DNA of 64,000 nucleotides from Clostridia bacterium (GCA_017473085.1 JAFUNF010000012.1:29415-93414); one strand, 5' to 3'. Positions 1,467-45,617 are shown, numbered from the stretch's first letter. The notes: generated by a model from the letters alone, not told the origin. Translations and numbers: made by a program.

Positions 1467-3146
1467 TTATTCAAAAATTAAAATAAAATCATAAACCTCT
1501 TGCATACCATCAACCTCATAAAGCTCCATTGTGCCTAAGGACTCAACGTATGCTTGAATTTCCTCTTTTTCCTCATCGGTTGTGGTTTTGCCATAAACCA
1601 TTATCAAAAACTCGTTTTCATGGCTAAATTTTTCAATTAGCTTTTTTGTTGTTTCAAGCTTTGATTTTGTGGAATAAAGCATTGTTTTTCCTGTAAAGCC
1701 CATATAATCGTTTTCTTCAATGCTAACACCATTTGCAACAGTTTTTCTGATTGACCTTGCTACCATAGCTGTGGTTGAGCTTTGCATTGCTTCAGCAAGA
1801 TTTTGTGCGATTATATCAGGGTCATCAGATGAATAGTCAAGCTCAGAAATTGCAGAATAGCCCTGTCCTATGCTCTTAGACTCGATTATGTAGATATTAG
1901 CTTTATCATATAGCTCCTTTGCCTGCTTAGCAGAAAGAATAATATTTGAGTTATTGGGTAATACGAATATATTCTCTGCGTTTGCCTCATCGAATGCCTT
2001 TAAAAAGTCCTCAGCAGAGGGGTTATTGGTTTGACCACCATTTACTACAACGTCAGCACCCATTTCCTCAAATAAGTCAATTAAGCCCTGACCCATAGCT
2101 GTTGTAACTGTGGCAAATTTCTTACGTGGCTTTTTGAAGCTTATTGCATCCTCTTTTTCGCCCTCGTTTTTCTTTTTGCCTACTGTTTCATTGTGCTGAA
2201 GGGTCATATTTTCGATTTTTACAGTTAAATATTCGCCAAAGCGTTGGCAATACTCAAGCACCTTATAGGGTGTCATTGTGTGCACGTGAATTTTTATAAC
2301 TGTTCCCGTTCTAAAGGCTACAATTGAATCTCCACCAATGCTTTCAAGATGCTTTATAAGTGCCTCAACGGAAAAGCTATCAATGTCAGTTTTACTTCTT
2401 TGAAGCTGTAAAAGCATTTCTGTGCAATAGCCATATTCCATTACACTATCCTCGGTAAACTTAGAAAAGTCTAAATCTACGTTTGTCTTGCTCTGTGCAT
2501 TTATATCATCGAGGATAAGCTCCTCGCCACTTAAAGCCTTGCAGAAGCCTTCAATTATATATACAAGACCTGCTCCACCACTATCAATAACACCCGCTTC
2601 CTTTAAAACTGCTAAAAGCTCTGGTGTTCTGTCAAGGGATTCCTTCATTTCCCTTAGGAATAGCTTAAAAAATTCATATACAGAAATATCGTCAGTTATT
2701 TTGTCGGCTGTGTTCTCAGCAGATTCTCTTGCTACTGTAAGGATTGTGCCCTCAACAGGTACTGCAACGGCACCATAAGCACATTTTACACCATTTGCAA
2801 TAGCAAGTCCAAAATCCTTTAGGTCTGCTCTTTCGTGACCCTTTAAGCCCTCAGCTAAGCCGTAGAAAAGCTGAGAAAGAATAACTCCTGAGTTACCTCT
2901 TGCGCCCATTAGCATACCATTTGCAAGAGCGCTTGCCTTTTCAGCCAGACTTTCGTCTTGAGCCTTTTTTAAGCCCTCAACACCACCACGCATTGTGAGA
3001 AACATATTCTCGCCTGTGTCGCCATCAGGAATTGGAAAAACGTTTAAATCGTTTACTGTTTTAACGTGGTCGTGTAGATTAACTGCACCACCCAGTACCA
3101 TTTTTTCAAAAAGCTCGCCATCAATCACATTGCCATTATACTTCAT
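1467..3146 (-). CDS. fakA: DAK2-domain fatty acid kinase subunit (FakA/YloV)
   Basis: LNVFPIPDGDTG, GARGNSGVILSQ, YGYCTE, KIHVHT and GGQTNNPS motifs. Confidence 0.92.
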   Translation of the reverse strand: MKYNGNVIDGELFEKMVLGGAVNLHDHVKTVNDLNVFPIPDGDTGENMFLTMRGGVEGLKKAQDESLAEKASALANGMLMGARGNSGVILSQLFYGLAEGLKGHERADLKDFGLAIANGVKCAYGAVAVPVEGTILTVARESAENTADKITDDISVYEFFKLFLREMKESLDRTPELLAVLKEAGVIDSGGAGLVYIIEGFCKALSGEELILDDINAQSKTNVDLDFSKFTEDSVMEYGYCTEMLLQLQRSKTDIDSFSVEALIKHLESIGGDSIVAFRTGTVIKIHVHTMTPYKVLEYCQRFGEYLTVKIENMTLQHNETVGKKKNEGEKEDAISFKKPRKKFATVTTAMGQGLIDLFEEMGADVVVNGGQTNNPSAEDFLKAFDEANAENIFVLPNNSNIILSAKQAKELYDKANIYIIESKSIGQGYSAISELDYSSDDPDIIAQNLAEAMQSSTTAMVARSIRKTVANGVSIEENDYMGFTGKTMLYSTKSKLETTKKLIEKFSHENEFLIMVYGKTTTDEEKEEIQAYVESLGTMELYEVDGMQEVYDFILIFE

Positions 3147-40778: not shown

Positions 40779-40997
40779 ACTAAGTTTGCCCTCGGGGCAA
40801 GTGAAGTTATCTGCGATAGTGAAGTTCACTTTGTGAGTGAAGTTTCGCCTGCGGCGAAGTAGGGGTTCCCCGAGACGAATGAAATGAGGCTTGGGGGTTC
40901 CCGAAGTGGTGGGTAAACTTAACTTCACTGCAAGCGTAAGCTACGCAACTTCACTGTGCATAGCACAACTTCACTTTTGCGATAGCAAAAACTTCAC
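40779..40997 (+). repeat. Ladder-type structured element (GTGAAGT+hairpin units, then AACTTCAC+hairpin units) with a nested 41-bp insert
   Basis: GTGAAG at 40801, 40819 and 40837; CTTCAC at 40923, 40949, 40969 and 40992. Confidence 0.75.
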
Positions 40998-41060
40998 AAA
41001 CAGAAAAAGAGAGAACATTTCGGTTACTACGAACCGAAATGTTCTCTCTTTTTTTGTTTG
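40997..41060. terminator. Long bidirectional terminator
   Basis: AAAAAGAGAGAACATTTCGGTT...AACCGAAATGTTCTCTCTTTTT. Confidence 0.85.
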
Positions 41061-41063
41061 ATG

Positions 41064-42695
41064 TTATTCCTTAGGATTTAAAATTGCACTAACCTGTGTA
41101 TAGGTTATTGTTGATGCACTTGTGCTTACGGTTTCGTTTTCTATGTAGTAAACGCTCTCTCCTCCGATTACAAAGCCACAGAAGTAAAGGGCTGTGTCCT
41201 CGTAGCCGTCAATGCCACCAATCTTAATTGCAATTTCGTCGTAGGATTTTTCTGTATAGTCAACCATTGCAATCTTTTCGTGTGCCTTGTTGCCCTGTGT
41301 GTCGATTAGGTTACCATTGAATGGTGAGCTTGCATTTTCGCCAACGGCTAAAACGCCAAGCTTAAGGTTCTCGAAGTGTACCTTGTAATCATCAACGAGG
41401 TCCTTATCTACTACAAAGCTATGCATCATAGCCTTGCTACCTGGAATTTCACTATTTGAATAGCCTCTTGCGTGGATTAGCTTGTCAAGTGTTTCGATTA
41501 CATTTTCCTCGCCACACTCACGACTACACTCGGTATAAACCTTGTATTCACTCATAAATGCTTGACCTACAAACGTCTTTTTGATTTCATCGCTTGGTGC
41601 GTGCTGATCGTTATAGAATGCCTTACATTTATTGTAGCCATATACAATGTAGTAGCCTGTTGCAATTTCGCCAACCTTTTTACCTGTTAGCTCCTCGTAC
41701 TCTGCCTCGGTGCATACAATCGCATCGTAAATTCTGTTAAGACCAACACAATTTTCGCCTGTTGCCTCGTCAGCAGCCTTAAATCTTGCTTGAAGAGCAA
41801 GTGCTTGCTCCTTTGTACCTGTGTAAACAAAGGTTATATTTTTTGGGTTATTGTTAGTTCCACTAACGCCGTTAGTTTTAGCTCCCTCCCAGTGGAACAT
41901 ATTTGATGGTGGCTCACTTGTTACGCTTGATCCATAGAAGGTTTCAGGTAAATACCAAACAGAGCCACTTGTAGCACAGTCGGACATTGAACCAGCCATT
42001 GTTTGAAGATTTGCACCAAAAACAATTGTTTTTAGCTTCGAGCAGGAGGCAAACGCTCCACCCTTAATCTCTGTTACGCAGTTAGGAAATACTATTGTTT
42101 CAAGTGATGTACATTTTTGAAAAAAGTTTAATGGAATATAGCTAATGTTATATCCTTCTCCAAACGTAACTTCTTTGAGTGAAGTGCAGCTTGCAAAATG
42201 ATTTTGTCCATTGTAGGTTGTCAATGTGCCTGGAATAACAATACTTTCAAGCTTTGAGCACGCCTCAAAGCATCCCCACTCGAACGTTGTAACCGCGGTA
42301 TTCTCTGGAAAAACAACCTCAACAAGAGCCTGACCATAGTTCTCATTTTTGCCACCATTCAATTGAGCGGTGATTTTGATAACATTTAACGGAATCTCAA
42401 TTCTTATGATACTGTTCTTTCCGTATTCCTTAGTAAATGCAGTATTTACTCGAGTAAAATCCAAGCTAAAGCTTGTAGAGCTTTTAACAATATAACGTGC
42501 AGGATATGTGTGATATTCTGTGCCATCATAAAGTACAACTCTTGCCGTTTCATCTGTTGACATATCGGTTAGGTCAATTGTATCGCTTGTTTCAACTGTA
42601 CCAAATTCGTTTGTCGAAGCAGCACTTACCGAAAATGAAAGCACACATACAAGTGACACAACCATTATAGCTATTAATAAAAGCTTTCTTTTCAT
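41064..42695 (-). CDS. BspA-type LRR surface protein
   Basis: Start moved to ATG 42695 (AGGAGA RBS); signal peptide ending VSA; F..C..L..I.FP repeats. Confidence 0.85.
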   Translation of the reverse strand: MKRKLLLIAIMVVSLVCVLSFSVSAASTNEFGTVETSDTIDLTDMSTDETARVVLYDGTEYHTYPARYIVKSSTSFSLDFTRVNTAFTKEYGKNSIIRIEIPLNVIKITAQLNGGKNENYGQALVEVVFPENTAVTTFEWGCFEACSKLESIVIPGTLTTYNGQNHFASCTSLKEVTFGEGYNISYIPLNFFQKCTSLETIVFPNCVTEIKGGAFASCSKLKTIVFGANLQTMAGSMSDCATSGSVWYLPETFYGSSVTSEPPSNMFHWEGAKTNGVSGTNNNPKNITFVYTGTKEQALALQARFKAADEATGENCVGLNRIYDAIVCTEAEYEELTGKKVGEIATGYYIVYGYNKCKAFYNDQHAPSDEIKKTFVGQAFMSEYKVYTECSRECGEENVIETLDKLIHARGYSNSEIPGSKAMMHSFVVDKDLVDDYKVHFENLKLGVLAVGENASSPFNGNLIDTQGNKAHEKIAMVDYTEKSYDEIAIKIGGIDGYEDTALYFCGFVIGGESVYYIENETVSTSASTITYTQVSAILNPKE

Positions 42696-42715: not shown

Positions 42716-42746
42716 GCAAGGGCACATTTTGTATTAGTGCCCTTGC
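42716..42746 (-). terminator. Hairpin after the last peptide-gene 3' copy
   Basis: GCAAGGGCAC...GTGCCCTTGC; no strong U-tract. Confidence 0.5.
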
Positions 42747-42799
42747 CAATTGTTATTTTAGAACAATAAGTCCTTAATATCTGCAGTAGAAGTTCACAC

Positions 42800-42880
42800 G
42801 CCTTCCCCTTGAGGGGAAGGGGGACCACGTCCACAAAATTAAAAATACGCAAATGCTACAATTAGTGGTGGATGAGGTGT
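42800..42880 (+). repeat. REP-like element A
   Basis: GCCTTCCCCTTGAGGGGAAGGGGGACC...GGTGGATGAGGTGT. Confidence 0.8.
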
Positions 42881-42962
42881 TGAATTTCTCTACATTAGAA
42901 CAATAAGTCCTTAATATCTGCCGTTGAAGTACCCTTTGTTACCTCTACCTCGCCCTCGTAAT

Positions 42963-43019
42963 AGCCTTCCCCTTTGTTCGGAGGGGAAGGTGTCTGCATA
43001 GCAGACGGATGAGGTGTAG
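42963..43019 (+). repeat. REP-like element B
   Basis: AGCCTTCCCCT..GAGGGGAAGGTGTCTGCATAGCAGACGGATGAGGTGTAG. Confidence 0.8.
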
Positions 43020-43024
43020 TCCTA

Positions 43025-43192
43025 TTAGAACAATAAGTCCTTAATATCTGCTGTTGAAGTACCCTTTGTTACCTCTACCTCGCCCTCGCCGAAGTCAAAT
43101 GTCTCCGTTGAGGTTGCAATATCATTAGGAGAAAACTCCATTATGTCCTCGCTTGAGATTATTTCAAGCTTATATTCTGGTTTAATATACAT
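43025..43192 (-). CDS. Unannotated 55-aa acidic peptide MYIKPEYKLEIISSEDIMEFSPNDIATSTETFDFGEGEVEVTKGTSTADIKDLLF
   Basis: AAGGAGGAG RBS 6 nt upstream of ATG; duplicated 3' ends differ only at synonymous sites. Confidence 0.75.
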   Translation of the reverse strand: MYIKPEYKLEIISSEDIMEFSPNDIATSTETFDFGEGEVEVTKGTSTADIKDLLF

Positions 43193-43261
43193 CTTTTACT
43201 CCTCCTTACTTGGATTTAAAATATAAATTTTTTATTGTGGAGATTTCACGCTACTTTGTAG

Positions 43262-43345
43262 CTACACCTCATCCACCGCTGATGTTTGCTTCTGCTTACA
43301 TTTAGCTTAGTGGTTGCGGTCCCCCTTCCCCTCAAGGGGAAGGCT
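43262..43345 (-). repeat. REP-like element C (inverted relative to A and B)
   Basis: CTACACCTCATCCACCGC...GCGGTCCCCCTTCCCCTCAAGGGGAAGGCT. Confidence 0.8.
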
Positions 43346-43346
43346 G

Positions 43347-45617
43347 TTACTCCTCCTTGTTTCCTGATAAAATTGCGCTAACCTGTGTATAGGTTATAGT
43401 TGATGCACTTGTGCTTACGGTTTCGTTTTCTATGTAGTAAACGCTCTCTCCACCAATTACAAAGCCACAGAAGTAAAGGGCTGTGTCCTCGTAGCCATCA
43501 ATGCCACCAATCTTAATTGCAATTTCGTCGTATGACTTTTCGGTAAAGTCAACCATTGCAATCTTTTCGTGTGCCTTGTTGCCCTGTGTGTCGATTAGGT
43601 TACCATTAAATGGTGACTCTGCGTTTTCGCCAACGGCTAAAACTCCAAGCTTAAGATTCTCGAAGTGTACCTTGTAATCATCAACAAGGTCCTTATCTAC
43701 TACAAAGCTATGCATCATAGCCTTACTACCTGGAATTTCACTATTTGAATAGCCTCTTGCGTGAATCAGCTTGTCAAGTGTTTCGATTACATTTTCCTCG
43801 CCACACGCACGACCACACTCGGTATAAACCTTGTATTCACTCATAAACTCTTGACCAACAAAGGATTTCTTAATTTCCGCACTTGCAGAATGTACACCCT
43901 CGTAGAATGCCTCGCACTTGTTGTAGCCGTAAACCAAATATCTTGCAGGTGTACCACTAACACCTGTTACAAGTGTTCCATCTGCTACGGCTTTAGCATA
44001 GTCCTCTGCACTGATAAGTGTCATTGTTGCAATATAGGTATTTACTCCTTGTGCAGATTCAAGAATTGCCTCTGCTTGTGATTTAGTTCCTGTGTAGAAG
44101 AATGTCAAGTTGAGATATTGATTATTATATTCATTTGCATTGTTGTCATTCCAAGAGAAGATGTTATTTCTTACACCATTAAAGGTATCAGAAAGATAAA
44201 CGTACTTTAGAGTTGAACCATTTGCAAATGGTGGTTGAGTTGCGTTGTTTGCGTCAAAGTCAACGAAGGAAGCACCAAGATTTACGCTTTCAAGATTTGT
44301 ACAGCCATTAAATGTGCTCTGGCCAATTCTTAAAAGGCTGTTAGGGAATACAATTTCCTTAATTGCAGTCTTTTGGAAGCCGTGTGCTCCAACCTTTTCA
44401 AGTAGTGCACCCTCCATTTCAAAGGTAACTGTTGAAAGAGATGTGCAAGAATCAAAGCAGTTGTTTCCAATGTACGTTACACTTGCAGGAATATGAATTG
44501 AGGTAAGAGATGAACAGCCACTAAAGGTAGATGGCCAAAGTCCTGTAAGACCACTTGGCAAATTAATGGATGCAAGACTTGTGCATCCAGAAAATACAGA
44601 TGAGCCATTAGCATCTCTTCCCAATTTGGTTAGTGTGCTTGGAAGCTTAACAGATGTAATTTGTGTGTTTGTGAAAGCACTGTAATCAATTTGAGTAACT
44701 CCTTCAGGGATTACGATATCTCCAACCAAGCCAGAATTTTGGAATGTTCTGTGAGCAATAAAGGTTAATTTGCTATTTGGAGCAAAGGTAAGACTTGTAA
44801 AGCTTTTCACGTCCTCTACTACCTGATAACCAATCTTAGTTACTGATGCTGGCACGTAAAGTGATGTAAGACCACTGCCGTAAAACGCCATTGCTCCAAT
44901 TTCAGTTGCTCCCTCTGGGATTGTGATTTCAGTCAAGCTCGCACAACCATAGAACATACTACTACCGATAAGCTTTGGACTAACAAGATTTACGTCTGTC
45001 AATGAAGTACAATTTTGGAATACACCACCACCGAAGTTTGCATTACCTTCAACTGTTAGCTTTTGAAGACTTGCACAGCCTTTGAATGCACCATTGTTAA
45101 ATTGTACGATTTGTGATGGTACTGTAAACTCTGTAAAGGTGCAATTTTCAAACGCATTGTCGCCAATTGCGGTTGCAGTACCAAAATCAACAGTTCTTAA
45201 AGAAACCCAGTCCTTACAGGTACTACCAGAAATCGCTGTAAAATTGCCAGAATATACTGGGAACTTTATTTCTGTTACGTTTGCAAATTGTGTTGCGTCG
45301 GTTGGTGCCCCCACCTGCTTTACGGTTTTATTGTTAGTACCGTAAGGGGTTGCACCCGACATATCAATTTTTACGATTTTTGTTTTGTCAACCAAATTTG
45401 TTTGCTCAGGCTCAAGATAAAAATCCCTTGCGAGCGAAATTTTTGGTGTCCAAGTGTCGAAGTCGTTTGTTGAATAAACCTTTGTATATTCGGTATCTCC
45501 ATCAAACAAAACCTCGAACTCAATGTACATCGCTGGTGTTTCTGCGCTTACAGCTATTGCAAGCACGCTAAACAACATAACAACGAGTGTGAAAACGAGT
45601 AAAAGCTTCTTTTTCAT
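43347..45617 (-). CDS. BspA-type LRR surface protein
   Basis: Signal peptide ending VSA; more than 10 LRR_5 repeats; C-terminus nearly identical to 41064-42695. Confidence 0.9.
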   Translation of the reverse strand: MKKKLLLVFTLVVMLFSVLAIAVSAETPAMYIEFEVLFDGDTEYTKVYSTNDFDTWTPKISLARDFYLEPEQTNLVDKTKIVKIDMSGATPYGTNNKTVKQVGAPTDATQFANVTEIKFPVYSGNFTAISGSTCKDWVSLRTVDFGTATAIGDNAFENCTFTEFTVPSQIVQFNNGAFKGCASLQKLTVEGNANFGGGVFQNCTSLTDVNLVSPKLIGSSMFYGCASLTEITIPEGATEIGAMAFYGSGLTSLYVPASVTKIGYQVVEDVKSFTSLTFAPNSKLTFIAHRTFQNSGLVGDIVIPEGVTQIDYSAFTNTQITSVKLPSTLTKLGRDANGSSVFSGCTSLASINLPSGLTGLWPSTFSGCSSLTSIHIPASVTYIGNNCFDSCTSLSTVTFEMEGALLEKVGAHGFQKTAIKEIVFPNSLLRIGQSTFNGCTNLESVNLGASFVDFDANNATQPPFANGSTLKYVYLSDTFNGVRNNIFSWNDNNANEYNNQYLNLTFFYTGTKSQAEAILESAQGVNTYIATMTLISAEDYAKAVADGTLVTGVSGTPARYLVYGYNKCEAFYEGVHSASAEIKKSFVGQEFMSEYKVYTECGRACGEENVIETLDKLIHARGYSNSEIPGSKAMMHSFVVDKDLVDDYKVHFENLKLGVLAVGENAESPFNGNLIDTQGNKAHEKIAMVDFTEKSYDEIAIKIGGIDGYEDTALYFCGFVIGGESVYYIENETVSTSASTITYTQVSAILSGNKEE

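Follow-up and report, generated by a model that had tools for sequence, protein, structure and literature searches.

The peptide locus and its repeat family

The stretch of DNA analysed here, 64,000 nt from a Clostridia bacterium (GCA_017473085.1 JAFUNF010000012.1:29415-93414, called the window below, with coordinates counted from its first letter), holds on its minus strand a small gene for an acidic peptide, the 3' end of which is present three times. The copies are separated by two small non-coding palindromic repeats, REP B and REP A, and a third repeat, REP C, lies between the stop codon of the upstream BspA gene and the peptide gene (Table 1). A first-pass annotation had given the order of the minus strand as peptide gene, REP B, copy, REP A, copy, hairpin and had read the copies as ACT TCA ACA GCA, ACT TCA ACG GCA and ACT TCT ACT GCA. 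Both the order and the readings are correct, with a second copy of 65 nt; REP C, which is 80% complementary to REP A, was absent from that annotation. Direct repeats of the flanking sequence were found around every copy of this repeat, and at two copies in a related locus the duplicated gene ends differ from each other in the manner of alleles.

Table 1. Features of the peptide locus, listed from upstream to downstream on the minus strand
Feature	Position	Strand	Basis
Upstream gene, 756-aa BspA-type leucine-rich-repeat surface protein ending ...AILSGNKEE*	43347..45617	-	Open reading frame (ORF) list; Pfam LRR_5, 3.9e-81
Working BspA 3' end with ribosome-binding-site-like AAGGAGGAG and TAACAG; direct-repeat copy touching the hairpin end of REP C	43344..43373	-	Alignment, 30 nt, 73% identity
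REP C, 80 nt, plus strand reading ACACCTCATCC ... CCTTCCCCTCAAGGGGAAGG	43264..43343	+	Pattern matches, alignment
Spacer of 41 nt between REP C and the old BspA end	43223..43263	-	Weak alignment with BspA 3' coding sequence
BspA 3'-end remnant ATTTTAAATCCAAGTAAGGAGGAGTAA, reading ILNPSKEE*; now the ribosome-binding region of the peptide gene	43193..43222	-	Alignment, paralog end
Peptide gene, 55 aa, acidic, with AAGGAGGAG ribosome-binding site (strong)	43025..43192	-	ORF list, protein family
Copy 1, working 3' end of the peptide gene, 65 nt (20 codons, stop and 1 nt)	43024..43088	-	Alignment
REP B, 53 nt, short subtype, first hairpin GTCTGC..GCAGAC	42965..43017	-	Pattern, alignment
Copy 2, displaced 3' end, 65 nt, 64/65 identical to copy 1 (ACA to ACG)	42894..42958	-	Alignment
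REP A, 80 nt, long subtype	42801..42880	-	Pattern, alignment
Copy 3, displaced 3' end, 36 nt (11 codons and stop), 34/36 identical to copies 1 and 2 (TCT ACT)	42758..42793	-	Alignment
Hairpin with 10-bp stem beyond copy 3, no T-run	42716..42746	-	RNA fold, -20.1 kcal/mol, z = -4.3
Downstream gene, second BspA-type surface protein	41064..42695	-	ORF list, Pfam

The final 27 nt of the peptide gene have exactly three occurrences in the 64,000 nt, and none of 100 shuffles matched this. The hairpin pattern CCTTCCCC-N(2-12)-GGGGAAGG also occurs three times in the window, always at this locus (shuffle mean 0), and GGATGAGGTG has exactly three occurrences as well, each adjoining one CCTTCCCC/GGGGAAGG hairpin. 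All three repeat copies fall inside 550 nt, a clustering that fits targeting by homology or locus better than random insertion. The hairpin beyond copy 3 is probably the original end of the transcription unit and was not called by the terminator scan. The remnant that now serves the peptide gene as its ribosome-binding region resembles the end of a paralogous BspA gene, AILNPKE*, and the spacer next to it may be a decayed part of the REP C duplication. A weak promoter-like site (GTGAAA, 18 nt, TATATT at 43249..43220 of the minus strand, 9/12 matches) lies between REP C and the peptide gene; judged by its position, it might now drive the peptide gene, which has been split from the BspA gene.

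Copies of the repeat were sought by both of its end motifs, with mismatches tolerated, in the window and in 13 related loci (L001 to L013), altogether 213,901 nt. The related loci were obtained by a profile scan with the peptide-family alignment over species-representative genomes, and they come from three ruminant-gut metagenome-assembled genomes (MAGs), holding nine, three and one of them. Six copies were found, i.e. the three of the window, two in L012 (7634-7711 and 12068-12123) and one in L005 (10401-10531). The elements are non-coding and asymmetric and measure 53-131 nt. Read from 5' to 3', each consists of a conserved single-stranded motif, CTACACCTCATCC, a first hairpin of variable sequence, and a conserved GC hairpin, CCTTCCCC / GGGGAAGG, followed by about six bases which mostly start with CT; the two hairpins are unrelated in sequence, and two copies hold a nested insert within the conserved one. 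The invariant columns of the alignment are C.ACACCTCAT.C at one end and AGGGGAAGGC at the other, and only these short motifs are common to all copies. The element ends are unrelated and no terminal inverted repeats could be seen in the alignment of the six copies. In the two-hairpin folds the short copies reached z values of -5.7 and -5.9 and the long L005 copy one of -4.8; the others were weaker, at -1.3 to -2.7. At the left junction AC precedes T in four of the six copies, a loose preference. The repeat thus forms a small family of elements that are probably mobile.

Searches for known relatives of the repeat gave negative results. Rfam at gathering thresholds returned, for the whole window, only two tRNAs elsewhere, and under permissive settings the locus and the L005 copy gave chance-level matches only (E of at least 0.88); a weak match to CRISPR-DR57 (17.4 bits against a threshold of 39) reflects just the palindrome. 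Zero matches were obtained when positions 42740-43360 were compared with plasmids and phages by blastn, and a protein search for further copies with the spurious ORF spanning the long L005 copy gave no candidate. The family appeared undescribed in a literature search for the repeat motifs and hairpin and for duplicating palindromic elements in Clostridia, a search in which few subscription journals were covered. The repeat was also considered as an intrinsic terminator and this was rejected: downstream of the conserved hairpin stand sequences such as CTATTA, CTTGAT and CGTGTG instead of a T-run, and the terminator scan called nothing at the repeats.

Direct repeats around the copies and their divergence

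For each copy of the repeat the 200 nt on its left were aligned locally with the 200 nt on its right, and the same alignment was made at 3000 random positions as a control. Direct repeats of the flank bracket all six copies, and five of them beat the control. The score of the 65-nt repeat around REP B was reached at 1 of the 3000 random positions and that of the 36-nt repeat around REP A at 4. The two L012 copies have a repeat of 75/84 nt with indels at the end of a PFOR gene (3/3000) and one of 102 nt with 81% identity at the end of a YbaK-like gene (0/3000), while the intergenic L005 copy has one of 33/31 nt (8/3000). The REP C repeat, with a score of 28, was equalled at 267 of the 3000 positions; it is backed instead by comparison, namely by the BspA-like remnant, the undisturbed relatives and the weak BspA alignment of the spacer. 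Thus other copies, examined for duplication in the window and the 13 loci, bear out the link between repeat and duplication that the first-pass annotation had drawn, and the link is general. It is not specific to gene ends, as had been thought, since the L005 copy is intergenic and REP C is antisense. The five different flanks are the peptide-gene end (twice), the BspA end, the PFOR end, the YbaK-like end and the intergenic site, i.e. four gene ends and one intergenic site are duplicated.

A stop-to-stop frame scan pointed to the same places. Fifteen of 1227 frames had a tail repeated within 400 nt downstream with a score of at least 40, and the real genes among them whose repeat runs to the stop codon were exactly those adjoining this repeat family. 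The remaining matches were spurious frames, mostly in another repeated module.

The geometry is copy 1, 0-14 nt (41 nt in REP C), the element, 4-7 nt, usually 6 (0 nt in REP C), and copy 2, so that the right joint lies 4-7 nt past the hairpin in five of the six copies. No microhomology was visible by eye at the six junctions, therefore simple microhomology-mediated joining is not favoured. The flanking repeats are 27-102 nt long. The view of the first-pass annotation that these are not ordinary short target-site duplications is supported, but the geometry also fits a long staggered cut.

Such a cut is the basis of the main alternative, which we consider a serious although distinctly less probable explanation than the one favoured below: a transposase making very long and variable staggered cuts would leave target duplications of 27-102 nt, and the working copy would later be overwritten by a diverged homolog, with a tract ending at the element. 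Insertions near gene ends would then survive only if the duplication spanned the stop codon. The repeats indeed adjoin the element on both sides, and the repeat pairs at REP A, REP B and L005 are near-identical. REP C fits well, its remnant having decayed except where it serves as a ribosome-binding site. Precedents exist in the direct repeats of 8-514 bp at IS1549/IS1634 (excerpt of PMC2266710) and in those of 3-26 bp beside dyad symmetry at YPAL/RU-2 (excerpt of PMC2229807). An unrelated element in the same loci, called 'M' here, also has a 24-nt flanking repeat and can be seen with both filled and empty sites. On the other hand, the repeat has no terminal inverted repeats, unlike DDE-type elements.

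The element M is about 193 nt long and structured and stands just after peptide genes, at L010:176-368 with repeats at 152-175 and 369-392, and alike in L002. Its direct repeat is ACATGCTGGTAAAACCATAACCAC, 23/24 identical in L010 and 24/24 in L002, and the empty site is found in L007. Tandem M-like units, each with a target copy, are present in L011 and L008, including an exact 84-nt repeat 450 nt apart. Long flanking repeats thus seem to be a recurrent trait of small elements in this lineage.

The first-pass annotation had stressed that the copies of the peptide-gene end differ only at synonymous sites. In the window this is correct, since the three changes, at two codons, all concern fourfold-degenerate sites, but alone it is weak evidence: P was 0.23 when copy 1 was compared with copy 2, and 0.05 when either was compared with copy 3. 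Because the window copies are 92-98% identical, a new allele and a young duplication are indistinguishable there. The annotation had further proposed that each event supplied a new allele of the 3' end and pushed the old end downstream. For the window copies this is ambiguous, and the strongest support for it comes from the related loci, where two of the six copies, both in L012, have allele-like repeats. The three codon variants of the window are all present in working peptide genes of the relatives (TCA ACA; TCA ACG in L006; TCT ACT in L005).

The YbaK-like gene (Pfam tRNA_edit) has 102-nt copies which encode the same 33 residues except for one R/K exchange. The 18 differences comprise 17 synonymous changes and one non-synonymous change (pS 0.745, pN 0.013, P = 2e-10 for random placement). 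In a dead copy decaying in place about three non-synonymous changes are expected for each synonymous one, and this pair is the opposite. The 17:1 synonymous excess therefore means that each copy was functioning as a gene end until recently, the two belonging to different genomes or paralogs. The repeat beside the PFOR gene (1210 aa) spans the last codons and the entire terminator. Although indels separate the two versions of this terminator, among them a matched T/A pair that lengthens the stem, each forms a perfect fold (-20.3 and -24.3 kcal/mol). In-place decay of a target-site duplication explains neither the YbaK-like nor the PFOR pair. The staggered-cut explanation would need here a second rare event at two of the six copies, with a donor diverged by about 19% and a tract ending exactly at the element, and it does not account for a fossil copy nearly without neutral decay, with one non-synonymous change in 102 nt.

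The left junctions are informative as well. In L005 the short segment joining the left repeat to the element is similar to the continuation found at the unfilled paralogous sites of L010 and L002, which does not hold for the DNA beyond the right copy; in the same way, the six bases that separate REP B from copy 1 are similar to what naturally lies downstream of other paralogs. Bases on the left that look like native flank of paralogs rather than element sequence, and that are not repeated on the right, speak against a staggered cut at both copies.

The unit length, measured between the starts of copy 1 and copy 2, is 137, 130, 151, 161, 167 and 180 nt at the six copies. Element length and the remaining unit length are anticorrelated (Spearman -0.81, p = 0.05, n = 6), and only 20 of 720 permutations gave a spread as narrow. 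The limit on unit length is suggestive. A narrow unit length is to be expected if the flank copy and the element are one size-limited piece; the staggered cut predicts neither this nor the anticorrelation of element and repeat length.

Relatives of the peptide gene and neighbouring sequences

The peptide belongs to a family of 22 protein clusters of 50-66 aa from uncultured Clostridia, 64-100% identical over the full length, with an almost invariant C-terminus, KGTSTADIKDLLF; to judge from these sequences the gene is genuine. The peptide gave zero matches in Pfam, NCBIfam and the named atlas clusters. Since the three MAGs hold nine, three and one locus, the family is multi-copy; the closest match to the window peptide among the 13 loci is 93% identical. 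In the relatives the peptide gene stands mostly directly after a surface-protein gene, the last codons of which (..KEEE*) double as the ribosome-binding site of the peptide gene. No repeat lies between the surface-protein gene and this site in L006, L004, L011 and L007, and in L006 the BspA end continues directly into it without a REP. The 13 loci comprise 15 peptide-gene ends, and no second copy was found downstream of any of these.

The presence of several gene copies brings in another possibility, namely that the displaced ends are remnants of tandem paralogs of the peptide and BspA genes, the 5' parts of which were lost in deletions that started at an inserted element, with synonymous differences from the time at which all the paralogs still functioned as genes. 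Both genes are indeed multi-copy, L001 and L008 have two peptide genes each, and the synonymous-only divergence would be explained. However, the two peptide genes of L001 and L008 are not in tandem; another gene lies between them, and the distance is 2.6-3.2 kb. The explanation would also require that PFOR (1210 aa) and the YbaK-like gene once had tandem paralogs, each trimmed to the last 8-33 codons, and it accounts for neither the intergenic L005 repeat nor the narrow unit length. We regard this explanation as improbable.

A local tandem duplication of the 3' end together with the REP, by slippage or unequal crossing-over and followed by internal deletions, would make REP B a shortened REP A. 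The similar spacing of 130 and 137 nt and the identity of the last 27 nt in the three copies agree with this. REP B is not a shortened REP A, however, because its first hairpin is different and it shares its subtype with the L012 copy beside the PFOR gene of another genome, to which it is 92-97% identical in two segments. In addition, the array terminates in a copy of the gene end and not in a REP, and the single elements at other genes with diverged repeats are left unexplained. Tandem duplication plus deletion, which the first-pass annotation had named as an explanation that would speak against its proposal, is thus largely refuted by the REP B subtype, and we consider it very improbable.

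The peptide gene stands about 360 nt or less from the contig end in six of the 13 loci (L001, L003, L007, L009, L010 and L013), therefore the multi-copy region breaks metagenome assemblies. The duplicated ends could accordingly be an assembly artefact in which strain variants of one 3' end were strung together, and the related loci are indeed MAG contigs. The same ordered structure and the same element ends at five flanks in at least two genomes argue against this, and so does the lack of any k-mer shared between the element end and the gene interior by which alleles could have been joined; of the explanations considered, an artefact is the one that we find hardest to credit.

Many peptide genes have, just after their stop codon, a conserved stretch of about 33 nt, GACGGATACATGCTGGTAAAACCATAACCAC (L001:10169-10215, L002:6620-6665, L005:10169-10205, also L006, L007, L008, L010 and L011); the window locus is without it. 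In L005 it is in frame after the TAG stop and would append ETDTCW*, and the protein P0004 (62 aa) is exactly this read-through form. The stretch may represent a read-through extension, a very small second ORF, or a site in DNA or RNA; it also serves as the target of element M. The C-terminus of the protein P0021, DRKSTRLNSSHVF, deviates from the peptide family; it resembles a translated sequencing adapter, and the database entry is probably an artefact.

In the neighbourhood, the upstream BspA gene gave LRR adhesin-like matches in NCBIfam, all under their cut-offs. A C-terminal stretch of about 190 aa (41064-41650 and 43347-43930) is almost identical in the two BspA genes of the window, whereas the N-terminal parts differ, which suggests recent gene conversion between these paralogs. 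Positions 40780-41010, 3' of the second BspA gene, hold about four occurrences of GTGAAGTT, each beside a small hairpin, and then about three of the inverse AACTTCAC; similar modules of ATGAAxT and a hairpin also follow the loci in L004, L007 and L010.

Proposed movement of the repeat and comparison with known elements

The explanation that we favour, and to which we give about an even chance of being correct, is that the repeat is a non-autonomous element transferred in a single piece with the terminal part of the flank at its donor site, positioned by homology and joined past its hairpin. The element has no coding capacity, and its movement would depend on a factor encoded elsewhere. The travelling piece, about 130-180 nt, would consist of the element and the end of the donor's left flank, the donor being a paralog or the same gene in another strain or species. 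It would be placed at the matching locus via the homology of the flank, and the second joint would be made 4-7 bases, usually 6, past the conserved hairpin. The outcome would be the incoming flank copy, the element and then the copy of that flank which was already resident. Where the neighbour is a gene, its last codons and stop would come from the incoming copy; the gene would remain intact and its former end would be pushed downstream, dead. The array of the window would represent two such events at the peptide gene, REP A first and REP B second, and a third, older event, that of REP C, would have split the BspA gene from the peptide gene.

Direct observation covers the repeat family and its ends, the duplicated flanks with their allele-like differences, the restricted unit length and the unfilled sites of the relatives; co-transfer of the donor flank, homology anchoring, the fixed joint and the trans-acting factor are what we infer. 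No transposase, integrase, reverse transcriptase or HUH enzyme, among them Y1 or Y2 enzymes and the Y1 transposase of the RAYT type, was found in 51 of the 54 window ORFs of at least 150 aa; the other three are two antisense ORFs within longer genes and one open-ended duplicate. The suggestion of the first-pass annotation that no enzyme is encoded here and that the repeat is acted on in trans is therefore plausible. The fixed distance of the joint and the lack of visible microhomology suggest an enzyme in trans that recognises the hairpin, and our guess is a hairpin-recognising single-strand nuclease or an enzyme of the HUH type. A stable end created at the hairpin would be an alternative to a trans-acting enzyme.

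Several points weigh against this proposal. The sample is small (six copies in four clusters from two genomes) and non-random, as the loci were selected for holding the peptide gene, and the source genome of the window is not among the 13 loci, all of which are metagenome-assembled sequence. Both allele-like cases sit on a single MAG contig, L012, a young in-place duplication would explain three of the six repeat pairs, with 92-98% identity, just as well, and the unit-length limit rests on n = 6. At the copy L012_1 and at REP C the repeats reach both element ends, which is the geometry of a target-site duplication. The repeat at REP C is non-significant by score alone, its orientation is opposite to that of the genes, and its history is ambiguous. 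Neither a donor locus in the window and the 13 loci nor, among the six copies, one without a flanking repeat, i.e. a possible primary insertion, was found. Recombination between sequences that are 81% identical is inefficient, and an enzyme that could move the element is missing from the scanned ORFs of the window.

Among known systems the repeat matches two kinds, small palindromic elements with long and variable flanking repeats, and 3'-end displacement. The first kind is represented by YPAL/RU-2 of Yersinia, reportedly described by De Gregorio et al. (2006). The excerpt of PMC2229807 presents YPAL/RU-2 as small, non-coding, structured and not AT-rich, with internal inverted repeats, and with target duplications of variable length (3-26 bp) at or beside dyad symmetry. 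These traits are shared by the repeat, whereas its flanking repeats are 27-102 nt, there is no sequence similarity, and the excerpted text (PMC2229807) describes no allele-like divergence of the duplicated copies. Insertion of IS1549/IS1634 gives variable direct repeats of 8-514 bp, for which there is no accepted mechanism according to the excerpt of PMC2266710. Long flanking repeats of variable length are common to this family and to all six copies here. Unlike the repeat, which is 53-131 nt, asymmetric and non-coding, IS1549 and IS1634 are DDE elements of 1.5-2 kb with terminal inverted repeats and their own transposase. Terminal inverted repeats matching a DDE parent, as a miniature derivative of the IS1634 family would have, were not found, and there is no transposase in the scanned window ORFs and no blastn match to plasmids or phages. 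A DDE-type miniature inverted-repeat transposable element was rejected too, since the ends are unrelated and the flanking repeats are long and variable.

As for the second kind, Jackson et al. (2009) reportedly deals with C-terminal displacement. In rhs loci and in the effector loci of contact-dependent inhibition (CDI) and type VI secretion systems (T6SS), such displacement leaves orphan 3' ends and is explained by homology-facilitated illegitimate recombination, as proposed in the excerpt of PMC5361080. As in our case, a new 3' part is anchored there by 5' homology, the old end is displaced, and arrays of orphan ends arise. The incoming ends described in that excerpt, however, are different toxins with their immunity genes and are adaptive, while the incoming end at the repeat has the same amino acids and measures tens of nt, and the heterologous joint is always at one hairpin repeat. 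Another likeness is found in fungal mitochondria, where the Allomyces atp6 case was reportedly described by Paquin, Laforest and Lang (1994). C-terminal duplications of atp6 and cob stand next to homing-endonuclease ORFs according to the excerpt of PMC6279837. The order, as far as that excerpt goes, is also gene, mobile DNA and then a partial copy of the C-terminal part of the gene; these elements have their own endonuclease and measure hundreds to thousands of bases, whereas the repeat encodes nothing.

The HUH elements (IS200/IS605 and their miniatures, IS91, Helitrons and Replitron-1) resemble the repeat in their asymmetric ends, a hairpin near one end and an orientation-specific structure. 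Canonical ones are without target duplication, unlike the repeat, which has flanking repeats at all six copies. The IS200/IS605 miniatures (PATE) have subterminal hairpins at both ends and insert 3' of a fixed tetra- or pentanucleotide, with no target duplication. A PATE derived from IS200/IS605 was rejected on the basis of the unrelated hairpins, the AC-before-T junction at only four of the six copies and the flanking repeats at all six. Replitron-1 has one 'fuzzy' end with parental flank and target duplications of variable length, as the excerpt of PMC10288648 describes it. By analogy, single-strand enzymes can leave signatures of this sort.

With REP and BIME sequences the repeat shares the character of GC-rich extragenic palindromes just after genes. 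In the REP/RAYT system (REPIN) the imperfect palindrome is headed by a conserved tetranucleotide of the GTAG type. This assignment was rejected because no GTAG stands beside the palindrome, the copy number is low and clustered (three in 64 kb and three in about 150 kb), the 5' motif is non-palindromic and the flanking repeats are long. In integron attC sites the cores RYYYAAC ... GTTRRRY bracket an imperfect palindrome; these cores are absent at the element ends, and attC was likewise rejected. The single target site and the integrase of an integrative element of the att type were not found: five flanks are involved, and the scanned window ORFs include no integrase. Allele-like copies, which att duplications can show because one half of the shared segment comes from the element, were seen at two of the six pairs, against three near-identical ones. 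A diversity-generating retroelement was rejected as well: each of the three changes affects an A of the gene copy, yet none alters the amino acid, the repeats are 36-65 nt, and the window has no reverse transcriptase among the scanned ORFs.

In a more far-reaching form of the favoured explanation, which we put forward only tentatively, the repeat would be an enzyme-less 'homing' element that spreads between alleles or paralogs as a size-limited piece of about 130-180 nt, overwriting gene ends without breaking the genes and leaving fossil ends behind. The piece might consist of single-stranded DNA, or of a copy made from a stable 3' RNA fragment whose end lies a few bases beyond the hairpin. 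It is quite possible, though less likely than not, that the mechanism is a new one.

Such arrays break metagenome assemblies and create spurious small ORFs. For the organisms concerned, mobile DNA could in this way sit free of cost beside essential genes, such as those of PFOR and of the tRNA-editing protein, the insertion itself bringing or making a spare gene end. From the fossil ends, past gene flow among strains or paralogs of an uncultured gut lineage could be read locally and dated. Should the flank indeed travel with the element, the family would exemplify the homology-based spread of non-coding elements with no enzyme encoded by the element, and small palindromic repeats would be linked to the 'C-terminal displacement' of toxin loci.

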